NCBI GenBank assembly: GCA_017882885.1 | Contig: JADGOQ010000008.1 | Span: 1 to 22,183, forward strand | Reading direction: 5' to 3' | Source: Actinomycetales bacterium | GTDB taxonomy: Bacteria > Actinomycetota > Actinomycetes > Actinomycetales > Actinomycetaceae | DNA: 22,183 nucleotides | Shown: piece after piece, positions 1-10,850 of the stretch | Numbering within the stretch: the first letter of the stretch is position 1 | Layout: every line of letters begins with the position of its first letter | Notes under the pieces: generated by a model | What the model was told of the DNA's origin: nothing | What the model saw: only the letters and a program-made list of their open reading frames with translations | The model's database searches: none | Made by a program: the position numbers and the translations under genes

Positions 1-686
1 CCCTGGCCGACGAGCTCGCCGCCGCTGGCGTCGCGGTGGTGCACTGCCCGGTGGTGCGGACGGAGCCGCTGCCGGTCACCGGCCTGGCGGACCACCTGGC
101 CTGGGTGGGCGACGACTGGCTGGTCGTCACCTCTCCGCGCACCGTGGACTTCCTCCTCGAATTCGCCACCCGGGAGGTTGTCCCGGCGGGGGCGCTCGCG
201 GCACCCCGGTGCGCCTGCGTGGGGGCGGCCACCGCCCGGGCCGCGCGGGCGGCGGGACTGCGCGTCGCCGTCGTCGGGGACGCCGACGCCGAGCGGCTCG
301 TGGAGCTGATGCCGGTGGCGGGGCCGTCGTCGCCCACGGACGTCCAGGTGCGCGCCCTACTCCCCGGATCGGCCCTCGCCCGCCCCGCCCTGGGCGAGGG
401 CCTGCGCGCGAAGGGGTACGACGTCCGCTCGCTGACGCTCTACCGGACCGTCAACGCGCCGCCGCCACCGGGCGCCCTCCAGCGAGCCGCGGAGTGCGAC
501 GCCGTCCTCGCCGCCGCGACCTCGCAGGTGGAGGCGTGGGTGGAGCTTGGCGGGCCGCGCGACGTCCGGTGGATCGCGATGGGCCGACCGACGGCGTCCG
601 CGATCCGCCGCCACGGCATGTCGTGCGTGGTCGCCCCGCACCCCACCGCCGCGGGCCTTCTCACCGCACTGAAGGAGCTGCCATGA
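1..686 (+). CDS. hemD: Uroporphyrinogen-III synthase (HemD), 5' end truncated by window edge
   Basis: ORF 36..686 translates to a HemD-like sequence ([14 protein letters not shown]...). The reading frame stays open back to nt 3 ([14 protein letters not shown]), so the true start lies upstream of the window. The stop overlaps the hemB start (ATGA at 683-686). Synteny is hemD-hemB-hemL. Confidence 0.7.
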
Positions 687-1648
687 TCCGCCCCCGCCGA
701 CTCCGCTCCACGCCGGCCATGCGCCGCCTGGTCCGGGAGACCCACCTCCATCCCGGGGCGCTCATCCAGCCGCTCTTCGTCAAGGAGGGGCTGGCGGAGC
801 CGCACCCAATCCCCTCGTTGCCAGGGATGGTGCAGCACACCACCGAGTCGCTGCTGGCGGCGGTGCGCGCGGCGGTCGACGCCGGCGTGGGCGGGGTGAT
901 GCTGTTCGGCATCCCGGCGGAGCGGGATCCGGAGGGCTCCGCGGCGCTGGATCCGGACGGGGTGCTGAACACCGCACTCCGTGCCGTGCGGGCCGAGGTG
1001 GGCGACGAGCTGGTGGTGATGGCCGACCTCTGCCTCGACGAGTTCACCTCCCACGGGCACTGCGGGGTGCTGAATGAACGCGGCGCCGTGGCCAACGACG
1101 CCACGCTGGAGATCTACGCCGCGATGGGGGTGGAACTGGCCCGGGCGGGAGCCCACGTCGTGGGGCCGAGCGGCATGATGGACGGCCAGGTGGCCGCGAT
1201 CCGGCGGGCGTTGGACCGTGCGGGGCACGTGGACGTCGCGATCCTTGCCTACGCCGCCAAGTACGCCTCGGCGTTCTACGGCCCGTTCAGGGACGCCGTC
1301 GACAGTTGCCTGCGGGGGGACCGGCGCACCTACCAGATGGACCCGGCCAACCGGCGGGAAGCGCGGCGCGAGGTGGAGCTGGACATCGCCGAGGGCGCGG
1401 ACATCGTGATGGTCAAGCCCGCGCTGTCCTACCTCGACGTGGTGGCGGATGTGGCCGCCACATCCCCGGTGCCGGTGGCCGCCTACCAGGTGAGCGGGGA
1501 GTACGCGATGGTGGAGGCCGCCGCCGCGAACGGCTGGATCGAGCGGGAGGCTGCGATCGCGGAGTCGCTGGTCTCGATCCGCCGCGCGGGGGCGGACATG
1601 ATCCTGACCTACTGGGCCACCGAGGTGGCGGAAGGACTGCGTGGCTGA
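683..1648 (+). CDS. hemB: Porphobilinogen synthase (delta-aminolevulinic acid dehydratase, HemB)
   Basis: Translation from ATG 683: [36 protein letters not shown]... followed by [18 protein letters not shown], a classic HemB N-terminus and active-site region. The ATG lies inside ORF-track ORF 209..1648, whose N-terminal Arg/Gly-rich extension looks spurious. ATGA overlap with the hemD stop. Product is 321 aa. Confidence 0.9.
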
Positions 1649-3017
1649 CGTGACGATGGAGGGCAACACGACAATGGATGGCTACACGACAATGGAGGCG
1701 CTCTTCGACCGGGCGCGGGCGGCGATCCCGGGCGGCGTGTCCTCACCGGTGCGGGCCTTCGGCTCGGTCGGGGGAACCCCGAGGTTCATCGCCTCCGCAC
1801 GCGGCCCATACGTCACCGACACCGACGGCGTCGAGCGGGTGGACCTCGTGGGCTCCTGGGGTCCGGCGTTGCTGGGGCACGCCCACCACGTGGTGGTGGA
1901 GGCCGTCCGGGAAGCGGCGGGGCGCGGGCTCAGCTTCGGGGCGCCCACGACCGCGGAGGTCGAGTTGGCCGAGATGGTGCGGGCACGGGTGCCGGCGGCG
2001 GAGCTCGTGCGCTTCGTGTCCTCCGGCACCGAGGCGACCATGACGGCGATCCGGCTCGCCCGCGCGGCCACCGGCCGGGACCTCGTGGTGAAGTTCGCCG
2101 GCTGTTACCACGGGCATGCGGACGCGCTGCTGGCCGAGGCCGGTTCCGGGGTCGCCACGGCATCGTTGCCGGGCTCCGCCGGAGTCACGGCCGCCACCGT
2201 GGCGCAGACCCTCGTGCTGCCGTACAACGACCCCGCGGCACTCGCGGCGGCGTTCGCGGAGCGCGGGGACGAGATCGCCTGCGTCATCACGGAGGCGGCA
2301 GGCGCGAACATGGGGGTCGTGGCCCCGCGAGCGGGCTTCAACGCAGCGATCCGCGAGCTGACGGCGCGGCACGGTGCGCTCATGATCAGCGACGAGGTCC
2401 TCACCGGTTTCCGGGTGTCCCCCGCCGGCTGGTTCGGCCTCGAGGGCGTGGTGCCCGACCTGCTCACCTTCGGGAAGGTCGTGGGCGGCGGCATGCCGCT
2501 CGCCGCCCTCGGTGGGCGCGCCGACCTCATGACCCGGCTGGCACCGCTGGGGCCGGTGTACCAGGCGGGCACCCTCTCGGGGAACCCGCTCTCCACTGCC
2601 GCCGGGATTGCCACGCTGCGATTGGCCGACGACGCGGTGTACGCCCACATCAATGAGGCAGCCGCCGTGATCGGGCGGGCCACCAGTGCGGCACTGGCAG
2701 CGGCGGGCATGCCGCACACCCTGCAGCGCGCCGGGAACCTCTTCTCCGTCATGTTCGGCGAACTCGCGGACACGTCCGGTCCGCACGGGCCGTGGGGTGC
2801 GGGCACGGTGGCGGACTACGCGGGCGCCAAGGCCCAGGAGGGCTGGCGGTACCCGGCGTTCTTCCACGCGATGCTCGACGCGGGCGTGGCTCTGCCCCCG
2901 AGTGTCTTCGAGGCGTGGTTCGTCTCCGTGGCGCACGACGACGACGCCGTCGGACGGGTGCTCGAGGCGCTTCCCGGGGCGGCCCGTGCGGCCGCGGAGG
3001 CTCAGCCGCCGAGCTGA
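1641..3017 (+). CDS. hemL: Glutamate-1-semialdehyde 2,1-aminomutase (HemL)
   Basis: [32 protein letters not shown]...[19 protein letters not shown] is a canonical HemL N-terminus, with PLP aminotransferase class-III features throughout. The start is ambiguous: GTG 1641 (GGAAGGA SD 4 nt upstream, 8-nt overlap with hemB), ATG 1656, ATG 1674 or ATG 1692. The conserved core begins at 1692. Confidence 0.88.
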
Positions 3018-4390
3018 GCCAGGACCGCCGCGGCGGCGGCCTGGCCCGAGGTGACGCAGTCGGGCAGCCCCACCCCGCGGTAGCTCGCGCCGGCGAGCTG
3101 CCACCGGGGCCGATCCGCGAGTGCCGCATCGATGGTTGCGAGGCGGTCCTTGTGGCCGACCGTGTACTTCGGCATGAGGCCGTCCCACCGCGCGATTCGC
3201 CGGAGGATCGGGGACTCGCCCGCTCCGAACGTCTCGGCGATGTCGCGCTCGACCGCGGCGTACACCTCGTTGTCAGGCCGCTGGTGGAGCGCCCGCGACC
3301 GCTCAGGGAGGAAGGACCGGATCAGGACGGTGCGGTCCGGGGCGCGGCCCGCCCACTTGCCGGAAGTGACGGTGCACCCGCTGGAGGGGCTGCGAGGTGT
3401 CCTGCCCGTTCCGGCGTCAAGGAAGCCATGCCCCACGGGTGGAGTCGGGAACGCCTCGGCGCGATACCCGAGGGACACGACGGCGGTCGAGGCGTGCGGG
3501 ATGGCACGCAGGGCGACCGCTGCGGCCGGTCGCTCCCCCTCGACCATCGCGGCGGTCGTGGGAGAGGGCGTGGCGAGGACGACGGCGTCGGCCACCAGCA
3601 CCTCCCCGGAGGCGAGGCGGAGGTGGGACCGTCCGGCGTCGTCGGTGGTGAGGGACACGGCGGCGACGCCGAGCCGCTCCACATACCCCGCTTCGGCACG
3701 GAGGTGGGCCATGAGGGCGTCGATGAGGTCGCCGAGCCCGCCACGCAGGGTGCGGAACGGGGATCCGGCGCCCTTGGGTGCCTTCCGGCCTGCCTTGAGG
3801 CTGGCGAGGATGAGGCTGCGGCTCTCGTCCTCGTAGGCCCGCAACATGGGCAGAACGGCGTCCAGGCTGAGCTCCTCGATCGAGGTGCCATAGATGCCGC
3901 CGATCAGGGGGTCGGCGAGACGCTCGATGATCGCGGGGCCGAGGCGGTGGCGCAGGAACTGCCCGATCGCCATGTCCTCCGGGCCGAGGTACCGCGGGAG
4001 GAGGACGTCGAGGCCGGCGTGGAGCTTCTGCGGCCAGGTGAAGAGGCGGGTGCGCACGAACGGGCCGAGGCGGGTGGGGAGCACCAGGCCCATTCCCTCC
4101 GGCATGGCGACCATCTCGCCGTCTCGCCGGAGGTACACGATCCGCGGCTCGGTGACGGAGATGATGTCATTCCCGAGGCCGAACCGACTGGCCAGTGCGG
4201 CTGCGGCGGGGCGGTAGGAGACGAAGGAGTCCGGCCCGTGCTCGACCAAGAAGCCGTCCACGTGCTCGGTGCGGATCTTGCCGCCCGCCTGGGGCGCGGC
4301 GTCGACCAACGTGACCTCGACCCCCGCGTCCACCAGGTCGACGGCGGCGGCCAGCCCCGTGACGCCCGCCCCGACAACGACTGCCCTCAC
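3002..4390 (-). CDS. hemY: Coproporphyrinogen/protoporphyrinogen oxidase (CgoX/HemY, FAD-dependent)
   Basis: N-terminal dinucleotide-binding motif [56 protein letters not shown] is typical of HemY/CgoX. The start is taken as GTG 4390, which overlaps the upstream rSAM stop (GTGA) and has a GGAGG SD 8 nt upstream. The ORF-track start at 4501 adds 37 implausible residues. Product is 462 aa. The 3' end overlaps hemL convergently by 16 nt. Confidence 0.85.
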
Positions 4391-5481
4391 CCGGCCGCCT
4401 CCACGAGCTTCGCGTACGCCGGGGGGACGTAGGTGCAGAACGGGTCCTCTGCGAGGGGATCCCCGAAGGCGGCATACGCCCGCGCCCGCGACCCGCCGCA
4501 CATCTGCTGGTACTGGCAGTGGTGGCAGCGGCCACCGAACTGCCTCGGGTCGTGGAGGGACCGGAAGAGGGATGCGGTGCGGTAGACGTCCACCAGGCTG
4601 TCGGTGCGGACGTCCCCGACGGGGAGCGGCAGGAACCCGGCTGGGCAGATCTCCCCGAGGTGCGAGACGAAAACGACGCCGTGCCCGTCCCGGACCCCGA
4701 AGCTCCGCATGATCGGGCTGCGGCGGATCTCCTCCGGAGAAACACCCTCCTCACGCAGGACCTCCACGGCAACTCGACGGTAGGAGGGCGCCTCTGTGGT
4801 GGCGACGACGAATGGTGCGCGCCTGGACGTCCGGTGGACCCACCGCATGAGCTCCTCCCCGTCCTCGGGTGGGAGTGGCTCCAGGACAGTGCCCCGGCCC
4901 ACCGAGATGAGGAAGAACAGGCTCCACCGTGCCAGACCGCGCGGTTCCAGCAGCTCGTAGACCGCCGGGATATCCGGAGCCGTCTCGGCGGTGACGAGGG
5001 TGTTCACCTGCAACGGGAGTCCGAGCTCCTGTGCCCAGCCGATCGCGTCCAACGTGCGTCCGAATGTCCCCAGGACTCCGCGGATGGCGTCGTGACGCGC
5101 GGCAGTGGAGCCGTCGAGGCTCAAGCCGAGGCCGGAGACCCCGTGGTCCCGCAGCCGCTCGAGGACGTCCCGGGTCAGAGCTTCGGTGGCCGCGGGCGTG
5201 ATGGACACGCTGATGCCGAGACGCCGCGCCTCGTCGACCAACTCGAGGAGGTCGGGCCGCTCGAGAGGGTCCCCCCCGGTGAGGATCAGGGTGGGCATCG
5301 GGTCACCGAACTGGGGGATCTGGCGCAGGAGGGCGATGCTCTCCTCGTGGGTGAGCTGGCCTGGGTGTGCGTGCGGCATCGCTGCGGCGCGGCAGTGGCG
5401 GCACGCGAGCGCGCAGGCCTGCGTCATCTCCCAGTAGATGTTCAACGGGGTCAGCGAGTAGTCGCGGGGGGCGTGTCTCAC
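4387..5481 (-). CDS. Radical SAM protein with C-terminal SPASM domain (TIGR04053-like/AhbD-like; possible anaerobic heme-pathway enzyme)
   Basis: CxxxCxxC motif (CALACRHC) sits 16 aa from a GTG start. A C-terminal Cys-rich SPASM region follows (CPAGF...CHHCQYQQMCGGSRARAYAAFGDPLAEDPFC). Translationally coupled (GTGA) to the downstream hemY. Confidence 0.85.
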   Translation of the reverse strand: MRHAPRDYSLTPLNIYWEMTQACALACRHCRAAAMPHAHPGQLTHEESIALLRQIPQFGDPMPTLILTGGDPLERPDLLELVDEARRLGISVSITPAATEALTRDVLERLRDHGVSGLGLSLDGSTAARHDAIRGVLGTFGRTLDAIGWAQELGLPLQVNTLVTAETAPDIPAVYELLEPRGLARWSLFFLISVGRGTVLEPLPPEDGEELMRWVHRTSRRAPFVVATTEAPSYRRVAVEVLREEGVSPEEIRRSPIMRSFGVRDGHGVVFVSHLGEICPAGFLPLPVGDVRTDSLVDVYRTASLFRSLHDPRQFGGRCHHCQYQQMCGGSRARAYAAFGDPLAEDPFCTYVPPAYAKLVEAAG

Positions 5482-5561
5482 CTGGTCAACCTATCGCGAC
5501 CTCACCCGTCCACCGGAACGGAGGTCACAGCCCGAGGGGACCGGGGCCGGACCGTGGTTGC

Positions 5562-5969
5562 TCACCAGAGGACGCGAACCCCCGGTAGCGCAGCGAATGC
5601 TGAGTCGCGCGTGATGAGGGTCCAGCCCTCGAGCATCGCCTGGGCCGCGAGCATCCGGTCGAACGGGTCGCGGTGCTCCCAGTCGAGACTGCCCGCCAGG
5701 AGCGCGTGCTCGGCGGTGATCGCCGCGTCGATCGCGCGCAGTCTGGATGTGTGGCGGCCATGGCCCGCAACCAGCACATCCGCTTTCTCAAGCTTGCCGA
5801 GCCGGTGCTTGGTCGCGATCTCCCAAGCGCATGCGGCCGAGACCATGAGCTGGGAGTCACCCGCCTCGATTGCTGTGCGCGCCTCCACACCGAGACGATC
5901 GGGTGCTGTGATGGCCCAGATGAAGGCGTGCGTGTCCAGCAGGAAGGGTCCCGAGTTCAGCCTTCCCAT
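5562..5969 (-). CDS. vapC: Type II toxin VapC (PIN-domain ribonuclease)
   Basis: FLLDTHAFIW...LVAGHGRH...LITRDSAFAALPGVRVLW matches the PIN-domain acidic-residue pattern. Product is 135 aa and overlaps the upstream antitoxin ORF by 13 nt. Confidence 0.85.
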   Translation of the reverse strand: MGRLNSGPFLLDTHAFIWAITAPDRLGVEARTAIEAGDSQLMVSAACAWEIATKHRLGKLEKADVLVAGHGRHTSRLRAIDAAITAEHALLAGSLDWEHRDPFDRMLAAQAMLEGWTLITRDSAFAALPGVRVLW

Positions 5970-6142
5970 GTCGCAAGTTCCTCTTCTGGGAGGTCCTCGA
6001 AGAACGAATTCGGAAGTTCGTACTCCACGAAGCCCAACTCACGCGGTCCCGCACCCCCGAGTGCGATCAGTTTGGCCACCGGCTTGTTGCCCCTCGCGAT
6101 GATGATCTCCTCCCCGGCCTCGACCTCCGCAAGCAGGGCCAC
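5957..6142 (-). CDS. vapB: VapB / Phd-YefM-type antitoxin, N-terminally short
   Basis: AEVEAGEEIIIARGNKPVAKLIAL matches the Phd/YefM beta2-beta3 core, and the acidic C-terminus (FFEDLPEEELATWEG) is typical of the toxin-binding tail. GTG start at 6142. Only 9 residues precede the GEE motif, whereas canonical members have about 20. Confidence 0.6.
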   Translation of the reverse strand: MALLAEVEAGEEIIIARGNKPVAKLIALGGAGPRELGFVEYELPNSFFEDLPEEELATWEG

Positions 6143-6779
6143 GCCGCCGCTCCCCCGTCCGCGTCCACAAGCCCGAACTGCCGCGCCGGTGGCTCTCCAC
6201 GATGTGCACGTCCACGATCCCCATTGCTGCCATGCACGCGAAGACGTTCACCGGCCCCACGAAAGTGAAGCCCCGCGCGCGCAGGTCCTTCGCAAGCGCC
6301 TCGGACTCCGGCGTCTGCGCCGGCACGTCGTCGCCGGTCCGCGGCAGTGGCGTGCGCTTCGGCTGGTACGACCACATCAGCCCCGCCAGCCCACCGTCGA
6401 CGTCGTCGGCGTCCCGCAACGCCACCGTGGCCTGCGCGTTCGTGATGGTTGCGAGGATCTTCCGGTGGTTGCGAACGATGGCGGCGTCGGCCATGAGCCG
6501 CTCGACGTCCTCGGGCCCGTACGCCGCCACCACGTCCGGGTCGAAGCCGTCGAAGGCCTCCCGGAACGCCGGCCGCTTGCGCAGGATCGTCCCCCACGAC
6601 AGCCCCGACTGGAACGCCTCCAGGGCAAGCCGCTCGAACACCCTGCGCTCGTCCCGCACCGGCATGCCCCACTCGGTGTCGTAGTAGTCGCGCATCAGCG
6701 GGTCGTGCGCCGCCCACGCCGGCCGCGCCAGCCCGTCCTCACCCACCACGAGCGAGAAATCGTCGTTGGTCTTCGCCAT
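6039..6779 (-). CDS. tag: DNA-3-methyladenine glycosylase I (Tag); 3' end ill-defined
   Basis: MAKTNDDFSLVVGEDGLARPAWAAHDPLMRDYYDTEWGMPV...LEAFQSGLSWGTIL...VGPVNVFACMAAMGIVDVHIV is a strong Tag match for about 195 aa. A strong SD (GGGGGAGGGG) precedes ATG 6779. After ...VHIVE the ORF continues for about 50 low-complexity residues in a frame that overlaps vapB before reaching a stop at 6039. Confidence 0.8.
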   Translation of the reverse strand: MAKTNDDFSLVVGEDGLARPAWAAHDPLMRDYYDTEWGMPVRDERRVFERLALEAFQSGLSWGTILRKRPAFREAFDGFDPDVVAAYGPEDVERLMADAAIVRNHRKILATITNAQATVALRDADDVDGGLAGLMWSYQPKRTPLPRTGDDVPAQTPESEALAKDLRARGFTFVGPVNVFACMAAMGIVDVHIVESHRRGSSGLWTRTGERRRGPACGGRGRGGDHHREGQQAGGQTDRTRGCGTA

Positions 6780-6944
6780 CCCCTCCCCCTTCAGTTGGTG
6801 GCAGGCTACCCGCCCGCGTGCCGACGACGCCGCCCGGGGTGGCGGGCCGCTGTGGACGACGTCGCGCGAGCGATCCTGTGGAAACCCGGCCGGGGTGCGG
6901 GCCAGGGGTGCGCAGCCCGGCCACGGCTGCCTTGGCCCGCCCGC

Positions 6945-7472
6945 TCAGGCCCCGGCGCCCAGCGCCCCCGCCACCAGCGCTTCCTTCGCCACGTCCGGCA
7001 CACCGGAGACGCGGGCCAGCACGACGCCGTCGGGCCGCACGACGAACGCCGTCACCGTCTCCGTGCTCACGATCCCGGCCGCGCGGCAGAACGCGGCGAC
7101 GTCGGTGTAGGCGGTGAACGTGCGCGCGAGCACCGCGGGGACGCGGATGCCGGCCGTCATACCGCCGTCGATGAAGCCGCGGACCGGCCGGAATCGCCGC
7201 CCGAGCACCGGCACCTCGATGACCAGCGACGACGCGCCCGGATCGAGCCCGAGGGGCGACGGCGCCACGCCGGCCTTCGCCGTCGCCCAGCCAATCCACT
7301 CGTCGACGAGGGACTGGTGCCACTGTTTGAACGCGCAGATCACGAGCGCGCGCGGCACCGGGAGGTCCCGAGGCAGCACCCACTCCGCGCCCTGGAGTGA
7401 GCGCACCTCGAGGTCGGGGAAGCGCGGCAGGTCCGCCCCGCCGCCGGGGCTGGTGACGCTCGAATCGCTCAT
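6945..7472 (-). CDS. Hypothetical protein (175 aa)
   Basis: Long ORF with high GC3 and an ATG start; divergent from padR. No family recognised (LEVRSLQGAEWVLPRDLPVPRALVICAFKQWHQSLVDEW). Confidence 0.5.
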   Translation of the reverse strand: MSDSSVTSPGGGADLPRFPDLEVRSLQGAEWVLPRDLPVPRALVICAFKQWHQSLVDEWIGWATAKAGVAPSPLGLDPGASSLVIEVPVLGRRFRPVRGFIDGGMTAGIRVPAVLARTFTAYTDVAAFCRAAGIVSTETVTAFVVRPDGVVLARVSGVPDVAKEALVAGALGAGA

Positions 7473-7550
7473 GCCCCGATCATCGCGCAGCGGCGGGCGT
7501 TTGGGGAGACCCCGCAGAAACTTGCACTACCCAGATGCTTGCCATGCATG

Positions 7551-7571
7551 CTACTGTGTACCACACACTAG
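7551..7571. promoter_or_regulatory. Imperfect 21-bp palindrome CTAcTGTGTaccACACAcTAG, candidate PadR operator
   Basis: Seen directly: a TGTGT-N3-ACACA core with flanking CTA/TAG, 23 nt upstream of padR GTG 7594 in the 121-nt divergent intergenic region. A TAGAAT -10-like hexamer lies at 7569-7574, and TTGCCA at 7539-7544. Confidence 0.4.
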
Positions 7572-7593
7572 AATTCGACCCGGAGGAGGGACC

Positions 7594-7929
7594 GTGGGCA
7601 AGGACGAACGCTCCGTCCAGCTGCGCAAGGGAGTCATCGAACTCGCCATCCTCGCGCTGCTGCGAGACAAGCCCCGCTACGGCGGTGAGATCGTGGACGA
7701 GCTCGCCGCCCACTCGGGCCTCGAGTCCACCGCCGGCACGGTCTACCCGCTGCTCACGCGGCTCAAATCCGCCGACTTCGTCTACACCACGTGGCAGGAG
7801 TCACCCGTGGGTCCGCCCCGCAAGTACTACACGCTCACCACCACCGGCCGGACCGAACTGCGCGCCCTCGCCGACTCGTGGCGCGAAATGAACGGTGCCC
7901 TCGCCGGCATCCTGGAGGACGACCGATGA
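7594..7929 (+). CDS. PadR-family transcriptional regulator
   Basis: GTG start with GGAGGAGGG SD 3-12 nt upstream. LRKGVIELAILALLRDKPRYGGEIVDELAAHSGLESTAGTVYPLLTRLKSADFVYTTWQESPVGPPRKYYTLTTTGRTEL is a canonical PadR winged helix. Product is 111 aa. Confidence 0.85.
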   Translation: MGKDERSVQLRKGVIELAILALLRDKPRYGGEIVDELAAHSGLESTAGTVYPLLTRLKSADFVYTTWQESPVGPPRKYYTLTTTGRTELRALADSWREMNGALAGILEDDR

Positions 7930-8837
7930 CGCGCCACAATCCTTCCCCCTCCCCGACGGCCGCCGCTCACGAGCTGCCAGACGCCGCCGCCCACTTCCTC
8001 GACGATGTCGCCTCCCACTTGGCCCCCCTCCCGGCCGCGGCCCGCCGGGCCGCGGTCTCTGACCTGCGCGACCTCCTCGCCGAGGGCATCGAACCGGCCG
8101 AACTCGGCCCCGCCAACGAATACGCGGCCACCCTCCGCGCCACGCTCGGGGCCGAGGGCGACGACGGTGACGAGGTCCAGGCGCGGGTCTTCGGCATCCC
8201 CGTGGACATCCGCGGCGCCACGAGCGCGCGCGTGCGCTCGCGCATGTTCGACCCCACGGACCCCCGCATCCTCGTACCCCGCCTCCTGGGCGCCGGCTGG
8301 AGCCCGAATTTCGGCGCGATCGCGGTCCGCCTCGGCCTCATCCGGCCGGACGACCTGGACGCCGATGTCGTCGCCCACATTCCCGAACGCGTCACCGCCG
8401 TCACCCGCGCGGTCCCCTGGCTGCTCGCCGCGAAGACCGCCGCCCTCGCGGCCGTCGCGTGGCGGAGCGGCGAGTCGGTGCCGTCGCACTGGAACAGCGC
8501 GGGGCGGGTGGACGGGTGGTCGGACCGCCGAGTGGCGCTGCTCCCGCTGCTCGCCATCTCTGGAGCCGCGGCCTGGTGGGGCACCCGCCCGACGCCGTCG
8601 CCGGAGGACCGCCTCGTCCGCGCCGCCATCGGCGCGTGGGCCGGGGCGACCACCACCTCCATCGCCGCGGTGACAGTGACGAGCGCGTGGCGCCCCGACG
8701 CGGCGCACCCGGAAGCGGCGATGATTGCCGTCGCGCCCTTCGTCACGGCCGCGGCAATGCTCATCTGCCCGGTGCGCGCCGGAGTGCGCGCCCTCGGACG
8801 TGGCACTGTGGAAGCAACCGCAAAGGACACCCAATGA
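7926..8837 (+). CDS. HAAS/DUF1700-type sensor fused to a DUF1648-like membrane domain
   Basis: ATG 7926 overlaps the padR stop (ATGA). The N-terminus (ELPDAAAHFLDDVASHLAPLPAAARRAAVSDLRDLLAEG) is DUF1700/HAAS-like, the family usually encoded next to PadR. The mid-region (VPSHWNSAGRVDGWSDRR) is DUF1648-like and is followed by hydrophobic TM segments. Confidence 0.7.
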   Translation: MTRHNPSPSPTAAAHELPDAAAHFLDDVASHLAPLPAAARRAAVSDLRDLLAEGIEPAELGPANEYAATLRATLGAEGDDGDEVQARVFGIPVDIRGATSARVRSRMFDPTDPRILVPRLLGAGWSPNFGAIAVRLGLIRPDDLDADVVAHIPERVTAVTRAVPWLLAAKTAALAAVAWRSGESVPSHWNSAGRVDGWSDRRVALLPLLAISGAAAWWGTRPTPSPEDRLVRAAIGAWAGATTTSIAAVTVTSAWRPDAAHPEAAMIAVAPFVTAAAMLICPVRAGVRALGRGTVEATAKDTQ

Positions 8838-9166
8838 ACGACTTCGACACAATCCTCAACCTGCCCCCAATCGCCCTGGTGGCGCTCGGGATCCTCATCG
8901 TGGTGGAGCTGACGCTCCTGGTGATCGGCGTGGTTGCCTGGTCAGGCACGCCGGACGACCACATGCCTCCGCCGAATCGCTGGCTGTGGCTGGCCATCGT
9001 GGTGCTCCTGCAGATCTTCGGGCCGATCGCGTTCCTGATCTCGCGTCGCTCGCAGGCGAAGTACGCGATCACCGACGACGCAACTCCCGCTCCCCCTGCA
9101 CCGCGCCCCTCCGCCGACGCGACGGTCGACCTCCTCTACGGCCCGCGTGAGGACGAGCGCCGGTGA
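8834..9166 (+). CDS. Small membrane protein with PLD-nuclease N-terminal (PLDc_N, PF13396-like) domain
   Basis: ATG 8834 overlaps the upstream stop (ATGA). Two TM segments are present, and the motif WLWLAIVVLLQIFGPIAFLISRR is typical of PLDc_N small proteins found with PadR/ABC modules. Confidence 0.7.
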   Translation: MNDFDTILNLPPIALVALGILIVVELTLLVIGVVAWSGTPDDHMPPPNRWLWLAIVVLLQIFGPIAFLISRRSQAKYAITDDATPAPPAPRPSADATVDLLYGPREDERR

Positions 9167-10095
9167 ACGTCGTCGAGACGCGGGACCTCACGAAGGTCTA
9201 CGGGGACGTGCGCGCGCTGGACGGCGTCGCGCTCGAGGTGCCGGAGGGCTCCGTGTTCGGCTTCCTCGGGCCGAACGGCGCCGGCAAGACCACGATGCTG
9301 CGCGTCCTGCTGGGGCTGGCGCGGCAGACGTCGGGCAGCGCCACGATCTTCGGCCACGACACGGTCCGCGACGGCGAGCACATCCGTAGCCGCGTGGGCT
9401 TCCTGCCCGACGTCCCAGGCTTCTACCCGTGGATGACCGGCGCCGAGTTCCTGCACTTCGCCGGCTCCTTGTTCGGCATCCCGGAAGCCACGATTGCCCA
9501 GCGCGTGGACGGGCTGCTGGACATGGCGGGCCTCGCCGGCAACCCCCACCCCGTGGGTGGCTATTCGCGCGGGATGAAGCAGCGCCTCGGGATCGCGCAG
9601 GCCCTGGTCAACGCCCCGGACCTGCTGGTCCTGGACGAGCCCACCTCCGCCCTCGACCCCCTCGGTCGCGCCGAGGTGCTCTCGATGATCAGCTCGCTGC
9701 GTGGCCGCACCACCGTGCTGTTCTCCAGCCACCTGCTGGGTGACGTCGAGCGGATCTGCGACCGAGTCGCCGTCCTCGATCGCGGACACCTCGTGGTGCA
9801 GGGGTCGGTGGAGGACCTGCGGCGCGCCCACGGCGGCGCCACCACGTTCCGCCTCGCGGTGACCGACGGCGTCGACCGGCTGGCGGCGGCCGTGGCGGCC
9901 GAACCCTGGTGCGTGCGCTGCACGCCCGCCGTGCGTGACGACGGCGCCCTGGACGTCGTCGTCGGCGACCTCGCCGGCGCCCGCATGCGGGTACCGGTCC
10001 TCGTGGCGGGGCTGGGATTGGGGCTGCGGCGCTTCGACGAGGTCGAGGCGTCCCTGGAGGACGTGTTCGTGGACCTCGTGGGGGGACGGCGATGA
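9163..10095 (+). CDS. ABC transporter ATP-binding protein
   Basis: GTG start overlaps the upstream stop (GTGA). Walker A GPNGAGKTT, ABC signature YSRGMKQRLGIA, Walker B LLVLDEPTSALD, and an H-loop are all present. Confidence 0.9.
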   Translation: MNVVETRDLTKVYGDVRALDGVALEVPEGSVFGFLGPNGAGKTTMLRVLLGLARQTSGSATIFGHDTVRDGEHIRSRVGFLPDVPGFYPWMTGAEFLHFAGSLFGIPEATIAQRVDGLLDMAGLAGNPHPVGGYSRGMKQRLGIAQALVNAPDLLVLDEPTSALDPLGRAEVLSMISSLRGRTTVLFSSHLLGDVERICDRVAVLDRGHLVVQGSVEDLRRAHGGATTFRLAVTDGVDRLAAAVAAEPWCVRCTPAVRDDGALDVVVGDLAGARMRVPVLVAGLGLGLRRFDEVEASLEDVFVDLVGGRR

Positions 10096-10850
10096 GCGGC
10101 TTCCGGGCGTTCCTGGCCAAGGACCTGCGCGAGATCGTGCGCACGTGGCGTATCTGGGTGCTGCCGGGCTTCCTGCTGTTCGCGGCGCTGACCGGCCCTC
10201 CGACCGCGCGTTACACCAAGGAACTGCTCTCCTCGCTGGGCGGGGACATGTTCAACCCGTTGCTCCCCGACCCCACCTGGGTGGATTCCTACGCACAGTG
10301 GACCAAGAACCTCAGCCAGCTCGTGACGTTCGCGCTGATCATCATGCTGGGCAGTGCGATCTCGGCCGAGAAGCGCTCCGGCACGGCCGCGATGGTGCTG
10401 ACCAAGCCCGTCTCGCGCGCCGGTTTCGTGATGTCGAAGTTCATCTCGACGGCAGTCCTCGTGGTGGGCGCGACCCTCGTGGGAATGCTCATCACCTTCG
10501 GGTTCACGCTCGTGTTCTTCCCGGACGCCCCCTTCTGGCCGCTGCTGGCGGCCACCGCCGCGTGGCTCCTGTTCGCGTTGCTGCTGGTGGCGGTGGTGCT
10601 CGTGGGGTCAGCGGCCGTGGACTCCGGCGCCGGGGCCGCGGGAATCGGGCTCGGGTTCTTCGTGCTGCTGATGATCGCCGGGATCTGGGGGCCGCTGGTG
10701 CGCTGGACCCCGGCCGGCATGGTGAACGCGCCGGTTGCGCTGGGTGCGGACATGGACGTTGCGATCCTGTGGCCCGCCCTCACGACGGCCGCGCTCACGG
10801 CAGTCTTCGTGGCTCTGGCCGTCCGGGTGTTCGAGCGCCGGGAACTGTAG
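10092..10850 (+). CDS. ABC-2 type transporter permease
   Basis: ATG overlaps the ATPase stop (ATGA). About 6 hydrophobic TM helices; N-terminus MSGFRAFLAKDLREIVRTWRIWVLPGFLLF is typical of ABC-2 permeases. Confidence 0.8.
   Translation: MSGFRAFLAKDLREIVRTWRIWVLPGFLLFAALTGPPTARYTKELLSSLGGDMFNPLLPDPTWVDSYAQWTKNLSQLVTFALIIMLGSAISAEKRSGTAAMVLTKPVSRAGFVMSKFISTAVLVVGATLVGMLITFGFTLVFFPDAPFWPLLAATAAWLLFALLLVAVVLVGSAAVDSGAGAAGIGLGFFVLLMIAGIWGPLVRWTPAGMVNAPVALGADMDVAILWPALTTAALTAVFVALAVRVFERREL

Follow-up and report, generated by a model that had tools for sequence, protein, structure and literature searches.

How does a bacterium on the coproporphyrin-dependent (CPD) route to heme complete the pathway under anoxia? 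Since ChdC (HemQ) needs H2O2 and CgoX (HemY) uses O2 in vitro, anoxic heme synthesis in CPD bacteria is only partly settled. The question is raised by a heme locus on contig JADGOQ010000008.1 of an uncultured Actinomycetales bacterium (assembly GCA_017882885.1), of which we analysed positions 1 to 22,183, here called the window. The original prediction, made from the sequence alone, had placed there a radical S-adenosylmethionine (SAM) gene with a CxxxCxxC motif at 4387-5481, joined to hemY by a GTGA overlap, in a locus containing hemD, hemB and hemL and lacking hemQ and hemH. Open reading frame (ORF), translation and hidden Markov model (HMM) matches bear out the gene, its motif and the overlap, and the three further heme genes are in place (Table 1). 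Among the window sequences no hemQ or hemH was found, hemH being present in the clusters of relatives; in the same 22 kb there is also no hemA, hemE or Chlor_dismutase-like sequence. We propose, at a probability of about 0.75, that the radical SAM gene encodes an AhbD-type, O2-independent coproheme decarboxylase, i.e. a heme b synthase of the CPD pathway. Family membership, cysteine content, synteny and gene fusions, all directly visible in the data, are the evidence on which this proposal is built.

The arrangement itself is already covered in reviews, which, from genomic evidence, assign the anaerobic decarboxylation of coproheme to AhbD in CPD organisms without other Ahb genes (PMC13564367, PMC12670364, PMC10548856); one of them, from 2023, notes that ahbD lies together with hemY/hemH/hemQ (PMC10548856, citing Dailey 2015). 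The window gene is thus an instance of a known arrangement and not a discovery.

The radical SAM protein passed the NCBIfam model TIGR04053 (450.5 bits, cut-off 395; E=4.9e-135), with residues 7-353 aligned to positions 2-366 of the 366 in the profile. The next-best model was TIGR04545, i.e. AhbD (EC 1.3.98.6; E=4e-80, residues 15-353 against 2-339 of 339), followed by NirJ2 (162.8 bits, cut-off 500), NirJ (151.5, cut-off 515) and AhbC (138.6, cut-off 650), all of them tetrapyrrole radical SAM enzymes, while NirJ1 reached 122.2 bits (cut-off 650). The original prediction had named TIGR04055 as the AhbD model; this accession is in fact that of NirJ2. Pfam gave matches to Radical_SAM (E=1e-19) and Fer4_12 only. 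Because of the TIGR04053 and Radical_SAM E values the ORF can be taken as a real gene and not a chance frame, and its codon-position GC content of 0.72/0.50/0.88 likewise looks like that of a genuine high-GC gene (window GC, 71.6 %). No HemN-family model appeared in the Pfam matches or among the 25 best of 45 NCBIfam matches, and HMM scores and context speak against identity with HemN or HemW, a reading that we reject. Judged by profile score, AhbD is the closest characterised relative of the window protein. A full-text literature search for 'TIGR04053' found no paper, and while many relatives are labelled 'AdoMet-dependent heme synthase' by the Joint Genome Institute (JGI), NCBI keeps the neutral TIGR04053 name.

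The PDB held no structure of AhbD, NirJ or a TIGR04053 protein, the best sequence match being PqqE (E=1e-14). An AlphaFold2 model built from a 36-sequence alignment reached a predicted local distance difference test (pLDDT) score of 87, and an earlier model from 15 close sequences gave a pLDDT of 70 for the C-terminal domain. The closest solved folds to the model were PqqE, SuiB, BlsE, SkfB and anSME, i.e. radical SAM folds of the SPASM/Twitch type.

The ligand cysteines define the type of enzyme more closely. A search of 1.84 billion proteins supplied 150 cluster representatives, to which the window protein was aligned. Among 36 TIGR04053 members (42-84 % identity), C23/C27/C30 of the radical SAM motif and C319/C322/C328/C349 are invariant, and the latter four align with C312, C315, C321 and C342 of Methanosarcina barkeri AhbD, so that the auxiliary cluster AuxII is predicted to be present. 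In contrast, the M. barkeri ligands of the other auxiliary cluster, AuxI (C223, C256, C274 and C324), are replaced by E230, V263, A281 and S331; E230 and S331 are invariant in the same 36 members, and S331 takes the place of the last cysteine in the SPASM CX2CX5CX2C motif, which in M. barkeri comprises C312/C315/C321/C324, with C342 further on (PMC10452713). The position of A281 is occupied by Ser in a second TIGR04053 lineage, and the clade of the window protein carries an extra cysteine, Cys279, two residues upstream of it. The motifs TC(A/G)P, RGC, PCG and CGGC mark the AuxI positions of full-cysteine relatives. Of the SPASM domain that had been predicted, the AuxII half stands, while the Pfam SPASM model (PF13186) had no match on the protein and the AuxI ligands are missing.

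AuxI ligands are found in the AhbDs of methanogens and sulfate reducers, not in all AhbDs (PMC10452713), and those of non-methanogenic archaea have AuxII only, with Glu, Ser and Ser at three AuxI positions (Fix et al., PMC10452713). By its predicted ligands, the window protein is an AuxII-only AhbD type, near the archaeal Glu/Ser/Ser pattern. The profile scores agree: representatives of the Glu/Ser type reach 434-470 bits on TIGR04053 and 247-347 on the AhbD model (10 representatives scored), and the full-cysteine representatives 426-497 on AhbD and 346-417 on TIGR04053. Given this continuum, TIGR04053 is most aptly seen as the branch of AhbD-like enzymes with AuxII only, and not as an unrelated family. 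An AhbD-like decarboxylase and a TIGR04053-type protein, which the original prediction had offered as alternatives, are therefore the same thing, and the interpretation given there is supported.

Homologues run to thousands of sequences, with 760 clusters at 50 % identity and E<=1e-30. The closest named genomes are those of Demequina sp. TTPB684 (81 %) and of Brooklawnia metagenome-assembled genomes (MAGs; 80 %), followed by a tier at around 70 % identity that comprises a very large Bryobacterales/Terriglobia set as well as Roseiflexus and Acidimicrobiia MAGs. An identity of around 70 % between the source actinobacterium and these groups is unusually high and suggests either strong constraint or horizontal transfer.

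Heme-enzyme seeds were run by tblastn over 173 radical SAM loci. The original prediction had seen a possible objection in an absence of the gene from the heme loci of relatives; instead, hemY comes directly after it in every one of the 15 loci of the clade with at least 77 % identity that had enough downstream DNA, and on three shorter contigs of the same organism a truncated gene begins at the hemY position. Loci of the Brooklawnia type add a convergent hemE and then hemA-hemH to the pair, and none of the fuller contigs brings in a hemQ. The most complete cluster, on contig L090, harbours hemA, hemH, hemE, hemCD, hemB, hemL and hemY together with the radical SAM gene, without hemQ. Every step of the CPD pathway except that of ChdC is thus encoded, which leaves a gap that an AhbD activity would fill. 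In Demequina sp. TTPB684, the radical SAM-hemY pair lies apart from other heme genes, and a prophage-like block (L007, 1-8450; RusA, HTH regulators, small ORFs and a SNF2 helicase) precedes amt-radical SAM-hemY.

At 43 % identity to the window protein, the second TIGR04053 lineage (491.9 bits on TIGR04053) was found in Cellulomonas, Cryobacterium, Pengzhenrongella, Demequina and Microthrixaceae. Here the gene order is flipped: on contigs L091 and L092 the radical SAM gene comes after a second hemY, overlapping it by 4 nt, and lies beside nrdG, encoding the activase of the anaerobic ribonucleotide reductase, and in Microthrixaceae (L177/L178) it follows hemY with an ATGA overlap, ctaA being 2 kb away. 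L091 (15650-18183; likewise L092) carries two hemY/TIGR04053 pairs within 8 kb of one actinobacterial contig, i.e. radical SAM1-hemY1 followed by hemA-hemH, and hemY2-radical SAM2, the latter being 43 % (radical SAM) and around 35 % (HemY) identical to the former. In Cryobacterium breve the gene sits beside narGHJI, a link to anaerobic respiration that we count in favour of an O2-independent coproheme decarboxylase. The same C. breve locus (L175, CP075584.1) encodes a 179-aa Chlor_dismutase-family protein (903-1442), so that this protein and the nar genes (narG, narJ and narI at 1453-8366) fall within 9 kb of the TIGR04053 gene; an 886-aa multicopper-oxidase-like protein is encoded downstream.

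The HemY partners form two lineages as well, mirroring those of the radical SAM proteins, with identities of 69-82 % within the first, 45-48 % within the second and around 30-37 % between them. The window HemY, a flavin amine-oxidase protein (TIGR00562, 197.8 bits, cut-off 97.85), scored 232 bits against Bacillus subtilis HemY (CgoX; 3i6d) and 145 against the Myxococcus xanthus protoporphyrinogen oxidase (PgoX; 2ivd). Taken together with the Microthrixaceae partner and a HemY fused to the radical SAM domain in Polyangiales, the ranges were 191-232 and 119-145 bits, i.e. all three partners tested are closer to CgoX.

Gene fusions point in the same direction. A TIGR04053 domain (447 bits) is fused to ferrochelatase in P0255 (700 aa; six cluster members from JGI, NCBI and ENA, one of them on a 2.1-Mb contig) and to HemY in P0298/P0396 (832 aa at full length, Polyangiales MAG; TIGR04053). 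AhbD-type proteins are instead fused to the siroheme decarboxylase AhbA/B (P0337, P0342, P0357, P0360 and P0371), four of these five having the full set of AuxI cysteines and P0371 an Asp at one position. The pattern ties the AuxII-only form to CPD enzymes and the full-SPASM form to the siroheme route. In the tested representatives this amounts to a rule, i.e. Glu/Ala plus Ser at the AuxI sites if CPD-linked and cysteines if siroheme-linked, the archaeal AuxII-only AhbDs of Fix et al. lying outside the tested set. As far as genomic evidence goes, synteny and fusions link TIGR04053 with the coproporphyrin-pathway enzymes CgoX and CpfC. Two further fusions, P0243 and P0286, join TIGR04053-type domains to Pyridox_ox_2 (PNPOx-like, flavin/heme-binding) or to a GNAT acetyltransferase.

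Substrate, reaction and use under anoxia would be as follows, by analogy with AhbD (PMC10452713, PMC11306076). The co-translated HemY/CgoX would oxidise coproporphyrinogen III to coproporphyrin III, and the ferrochelatase CpfC, encoded outside the window and within the cluster in relatives, would insert iron to give coproheme (Fe-coproporphyrin III). The radical SAM enzyme would then turn coproheme into heme b, needing neither O2 nor H2O2, and would thus do the job of ChdC/HemQ. As in M. barkeri AhbD, the [4Fe-4S] cluster held by C23/C27/C30 would cleave SAM reductively, and the resulting 5'-deoxyadenosyl radical would take a beta-hydrogen from the ring A propionate and afterwards from that of ring B. 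The electron of the substrate radical would pass via the heme iron to AuxII (C319/C322/C328/C349) as the sole auxiliary cluster, with release of CO2, so that both propionates become vinyl groups at a cost of two SAM per heme. A physiological precedent comes from Haloferax volcanii, in which ahbD lies among denitrification genes and its deletion impairs only anaerobic growth, which is rescued by heme (PMC5746218).

Several points weigh against this proposal. The window protein did not pass the AhbD model TIGR04545 (269.6 bits, cut-off 500), though this cut-off is strict, since the full-cysteine representatives themselves stay below it at 426-498 bits; the family check suggested with the original prediction thus returned TIGR04053 above its cut-off, TIGR04545 below and no HemN-family match among those listed. 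Around 150 loci of the 70 % tier (Bryobacterales/Terriglobia, Roseiflexus and Acidimicrobiia) showed no clear heme gene within 10 kb, the sole seed matches being weak aminotransferase- or hemA-like ones at 27-29 % identity, and the same distance around several clade-B genes (Cellulomonas fimi, a Demequina sp.) was likewise free of heme genes. The heme linkage is therefore lineage-specific. When the neighbours in 83 loci, largely from Bryobacterales, were clustered de novo, no conserved partner gene emerged, which makes the context uninformative for that clade. A ChdC search with the 179-aa C. breve protein as seed gave nothing else in 176 loci or the window, a weak negative because this sole Chlor_dismutase-family seed is atypical. 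As stated by Fix et al., no AuxII-only AhbD has been assayed for activity (PMC10452713). Finally, the use of O2 by CgoX in vitro is awkward beside an O2-labile partner, an objection softened by the anaerobic activity of Staphylococcus aureus CgoX (PMC6620371).

Among the alternatives, a different role in tetrapyrrole metabolism is unlikely and yet survives best, i.e. a side-chain change of the NirJ/AhbC kind or a function as accessory or redox partner, enabling HemY to act in the absence of O2. The family has no functional name at NCBI, many members stand alone, far from heme genes, and the co-inheritance of radical SAM protein and HemY in two diverged lineages, even as a fusion, could mean a joint activity. 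Against this, the NirJ, NirJ2 and AhbC models score well below AhbD, neither the window nor the surroundings of any clade-A locus contain nir or ahbABC genes, and it is precisely the ChdC step that the L090 cluster lacks.

Quite unlikely, too, is a metal-free substrate, with the enzyme turning coproporphyrinogen III into protoporphyrinogen IX, in analogy to HemN/CgdH, or coproporphyrin III into protoporphyrin IX, while the adjacent HemY and a ferrochelatase would run a protoporphyrin-type route. Such an order of steps could be read from the position of the radical SAM gene in the window clade, upstream of hemY and translationally coupled to it, but the flipped order in the second lineage means that gene order says nothing about the order of steps. 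The fusion to HemY comes from a Polyangiales MAG, and M. xanthus, the model relative of that group, has a protoporphyrinogen oxidase; the paired or fused HemYs tested, three in all, score higher on B. subtilis CgoX, however, than on the M. xanthus enzyme. Substrate radicals are formed by M. barkeri AhbD on both coproporphyrin III and Zn-coproporphyrin III (PMC11306076), yet Fe-coproporphyrin III is the substrate of the closest characterised family, and the ferrochelatase fusion P0255 fits a hand-over of coproheme.

That the protein is a SPASM-type maturase of ribosomally synthesised and post-translationally modified peptides (RiPPs), lying beside heme genes by coincidence, is hardly conceivable: the partial matches to the GDL-motif, StsB, PqqE and MftC models are weak and mostly confined to the radical SAM core, and PqqE, SuiB and SkfB are among the nearest solved folds, but all RiPP models stay far under their cut-offs (around 100 bits or less; PqqE 89.4 against 381, MftC 86.4 against 265), no conserved small ORF was seen in the vicinity, the gene upstream changes from lineage to lineage (PIN toxin, ammonium transporter, TetR), the AuxI site of many RiPP maturases is missing, and the ties to heme enzymes, by linkage and by fusion, are conserved. 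Family assignment and gene context, with neither a precursor peptide nor a RiPP setting found, in effect refute the unrelated maturase that the original prediction had itself considered.

Returning to the O2-independent coproheme decarboxylase, it is tempting to speculate further that TIGR04053 has wholly replaced ChdC in the Demequina/Brooklawnia-like clade and forms a module of its own together with a specialised CgoX that does not depend on O2. We raise this tentatively, as an idea with the odds somewhat against it; it comes from the two diverged lineages of radical SAM/HemY pairs, the 4-nt overlaps in both gene orders, and the fusions of the radical SAM domain to HemY and to CpfC. The idea includes co-inheritance of the radical SAM protein and CgoX, perhaps in a physical complex. 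If true, the terminal steps of heme synthesis would be constitutively independent of O2 and H2O2 in Demequina/Brooklawnia-like actinobacteria, the paired CgoX would use an electron acceptor other than O2, and the enzymes would be the first bacterial class of AuxII-only heme synthases, with AuxI dispensable for coproheme decarboxylation. The biochemically studied AhbDs are all of the archaeal or sulfate-reducer type, and the present locus and its relatives, i.e. the L090 cluster and the paired or fused CgoX and CpfC partners, offer clean candidates for a test. Regardless, 'putative AdoMet-dependent heme synthase' would be a reasonable annotation for TIGR04053 proteins encoded beside hemY.

Table 1. 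Position, strand and basis of assignment of the heme-locus features and of other genes in the window
Feature	Position	Strand	Basis
hemD end (uroporphyrinogen-III synthase domain) of a hemC/hemD fusion, truncated at the edge of the window	3..686	+	tblastn
hemB, porphobilinogen synthase (ALAD), 321 aa	683..1648	+	Pfam ALAD on identical contig L001
hemL, glutamate-1-semialdehyde 2,1-aminomutase	1656..3017	+	NF000818 579.8 bits, TIGR00713 533.8 bits; gene call on L001
hemY, 462 aa, FAD-dependent coproporphyrinogen III oxidase (CgoX type)	3002..4390	-	TIGR00562, Pfam Amino_oxidase
GTGA overlap of radical SAM TGA stop (4389-4387) and hemY GTG start (4390-4388)	4387..4390	-	sequence
Radical SAM gene, 364 aa, GTG start	4387..5481	-	ORF and translation; TIGR04053 family, AhbD-like, AuxII-only
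AuxII motif codons, C319-x2-C322-x5-C328-(S331)-x17-C349	4435..4527	-	alignments
Radical SAM [4Fe-4S] motif codons, C23-x3-C27-x2-C30 (C23-ALA-C27-RH-C30)	5392..5415	-	translation
Spacer, 80 nt, PIN toxin gene to radical SAM start	5482..5561	-	sequence
TAGGTT in the spacer	5488..5493		
PIN-domain (VapC-like) toxin gene	5562..5969	-	
Phd/YefM-like antitoxin ORF, 61 codons	5957..6142	-	
tag	6039..6779		
PadR/ABC operon	7594..10850	+	
DUF222 + HNH endonuclease protein, 544 aa	11041..12675	+	
O6-methylguanine-DNA methyltransferase DNA-binding-domain protein, 121 aa	12720..13085		

The junction between the radical SAM gene and hemY reads GGGTGAGGG on the minus strand, and its 4-nt overlap, which is also found in Demequina L007, both L091 pairs and Microthrixaceae L177, suggests translational coupling. 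In the spacer ahead of the radical SAM gene, no Shine-Dalgarno sequence is visible before the GTG, and TAGGTT ends 6 nt ahead of it; given this, a leaderless transcript is conceivable. A scan for consensus sigma-70 promoters gave no match near the radical SAM-hemY operon, and the one terminator-like site found was not above the expectation from shuffled sequence. The pair converges on the plus-strand hemCD-hemB-hemL, the 3' ends of hemL and hemY sharing 16 nt (3002-3017), with no intrinsic terminator detected between them (region 2990-3020). NCBIfam HemD matches to the cut first gene were weak; the JGI contig L001, of identical sequence, gives a 536-aa Porphobil_deam + HEM4 protein in its place, with hemE ahead of hemCD, just past the left window end. 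The window hemB is 79 % identical to that of L090 (tblastn).

Upstream of the radical SAM gene, the spacer is followed by the PIN-domain toxin gene and then tag, and the remainder of the window encodes transporters, regulators and repair genes; an Rfam scan found no RNA family in it. The antitoxin ORF ahead of the toxin gene begins 'VALLAEVEAGEEIIIARGNKPVAKL...', seemingly lacks the usual N-terminal segment and shares around 100 nt with the 3' end of tag. This toxin-antitoxin pair may be an insertion beside the heme operon. Divergent from the tag/PIN/radical SAM side lies an operon encoding a PadR regulator, a DUF1648 membrane protein, a 110-aa ORF, a DrrA-like ABC ATPase and an ABC-2 permease, which is kept in the sister JGI contigs L002 and L004-L006. 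Further on, the DUF222 + HNH gene is followed by that of the methyltransferase-domain protein; DUF222 + HNH proteins are often tied to mobile DNA in Actinobacteria.

Compared with known systems, the window protein shares with the AhbDs of M. barkeri and Desulfovibrio vulgaris full-length homology, the CX3CX2C motif and the C-terminal CX2CX5C...C of AuxII, and a SPASM/Twitch-type fold is predicted for both, SuiB being among the closest folds here and the top neighbour of the AhbD model of Fix et al. (PMC10452713). Coproheme would be the shared substrate. It differs from AhbD by a score under the TIGR04545 cut-off and by the loss of all four AuxI cysteines, and its gene and those of relatives sit with hemY, hemL, hemB, hemCD, hemE, hemA and hemH, not with ahbA/B/C; likewise, TIGR04053 types are fused to CpfC or HemY, full-cysteine AhbDs to AhbA/B.

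Closer in cluster content are the archaeal AuxII-only AhbDs, e.g. that of Aeropyrum pernix, which likewise have Glu/Ser for AuxI cysteines and keep AuxII (PMC10452713). H. volcanii HVO_2144 may belong here too; in that organism, ahbD serves anaerobic growth alongside an aerobic ChdC (PitA) and near denitrification genes (PMC5746218), comparable to the Cryobacterium homologue beside nar genes. In the archaeal systems, however, coproheme is thought to derive from siroheme, whereas the window enzyme is bacterial and linked to CgoX/CpfC, and its clade has Ala at the second Ser position plus the clade-specific Cys279. The likeness to the archaeal proteins is drawn from their published description.

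ChdC/HemQ would catalyse the same net reaction and, within the heme cluster of actinobacteria, has a comparable place beside hemY, and ferrochelatase fusions are found as for the TIGR04053 type, e.g. the HemH-HemQ fusion of Cutibacterium. The two have no sequence or fold kinship, ChdC being a cofactor-free enzyme that requires H2O2, in contrast to an O2-sensitive Fe-S/SAM enzyme; in vitro, flavin mononucleotide can replace H2O2 for ChdC (PMC13564367). HemN/CgdH, finally, likewise carries out a radical SAM oxidative decarboxylation of the ring A and B propionates, as the O2-independent counterpart of an oxidase, but, like HemW, belongs to another radical SAM subfamily without a SPASM/Twitch domain, and acts on a metal-free porphyrinogen in the protoporphyrin pathway.

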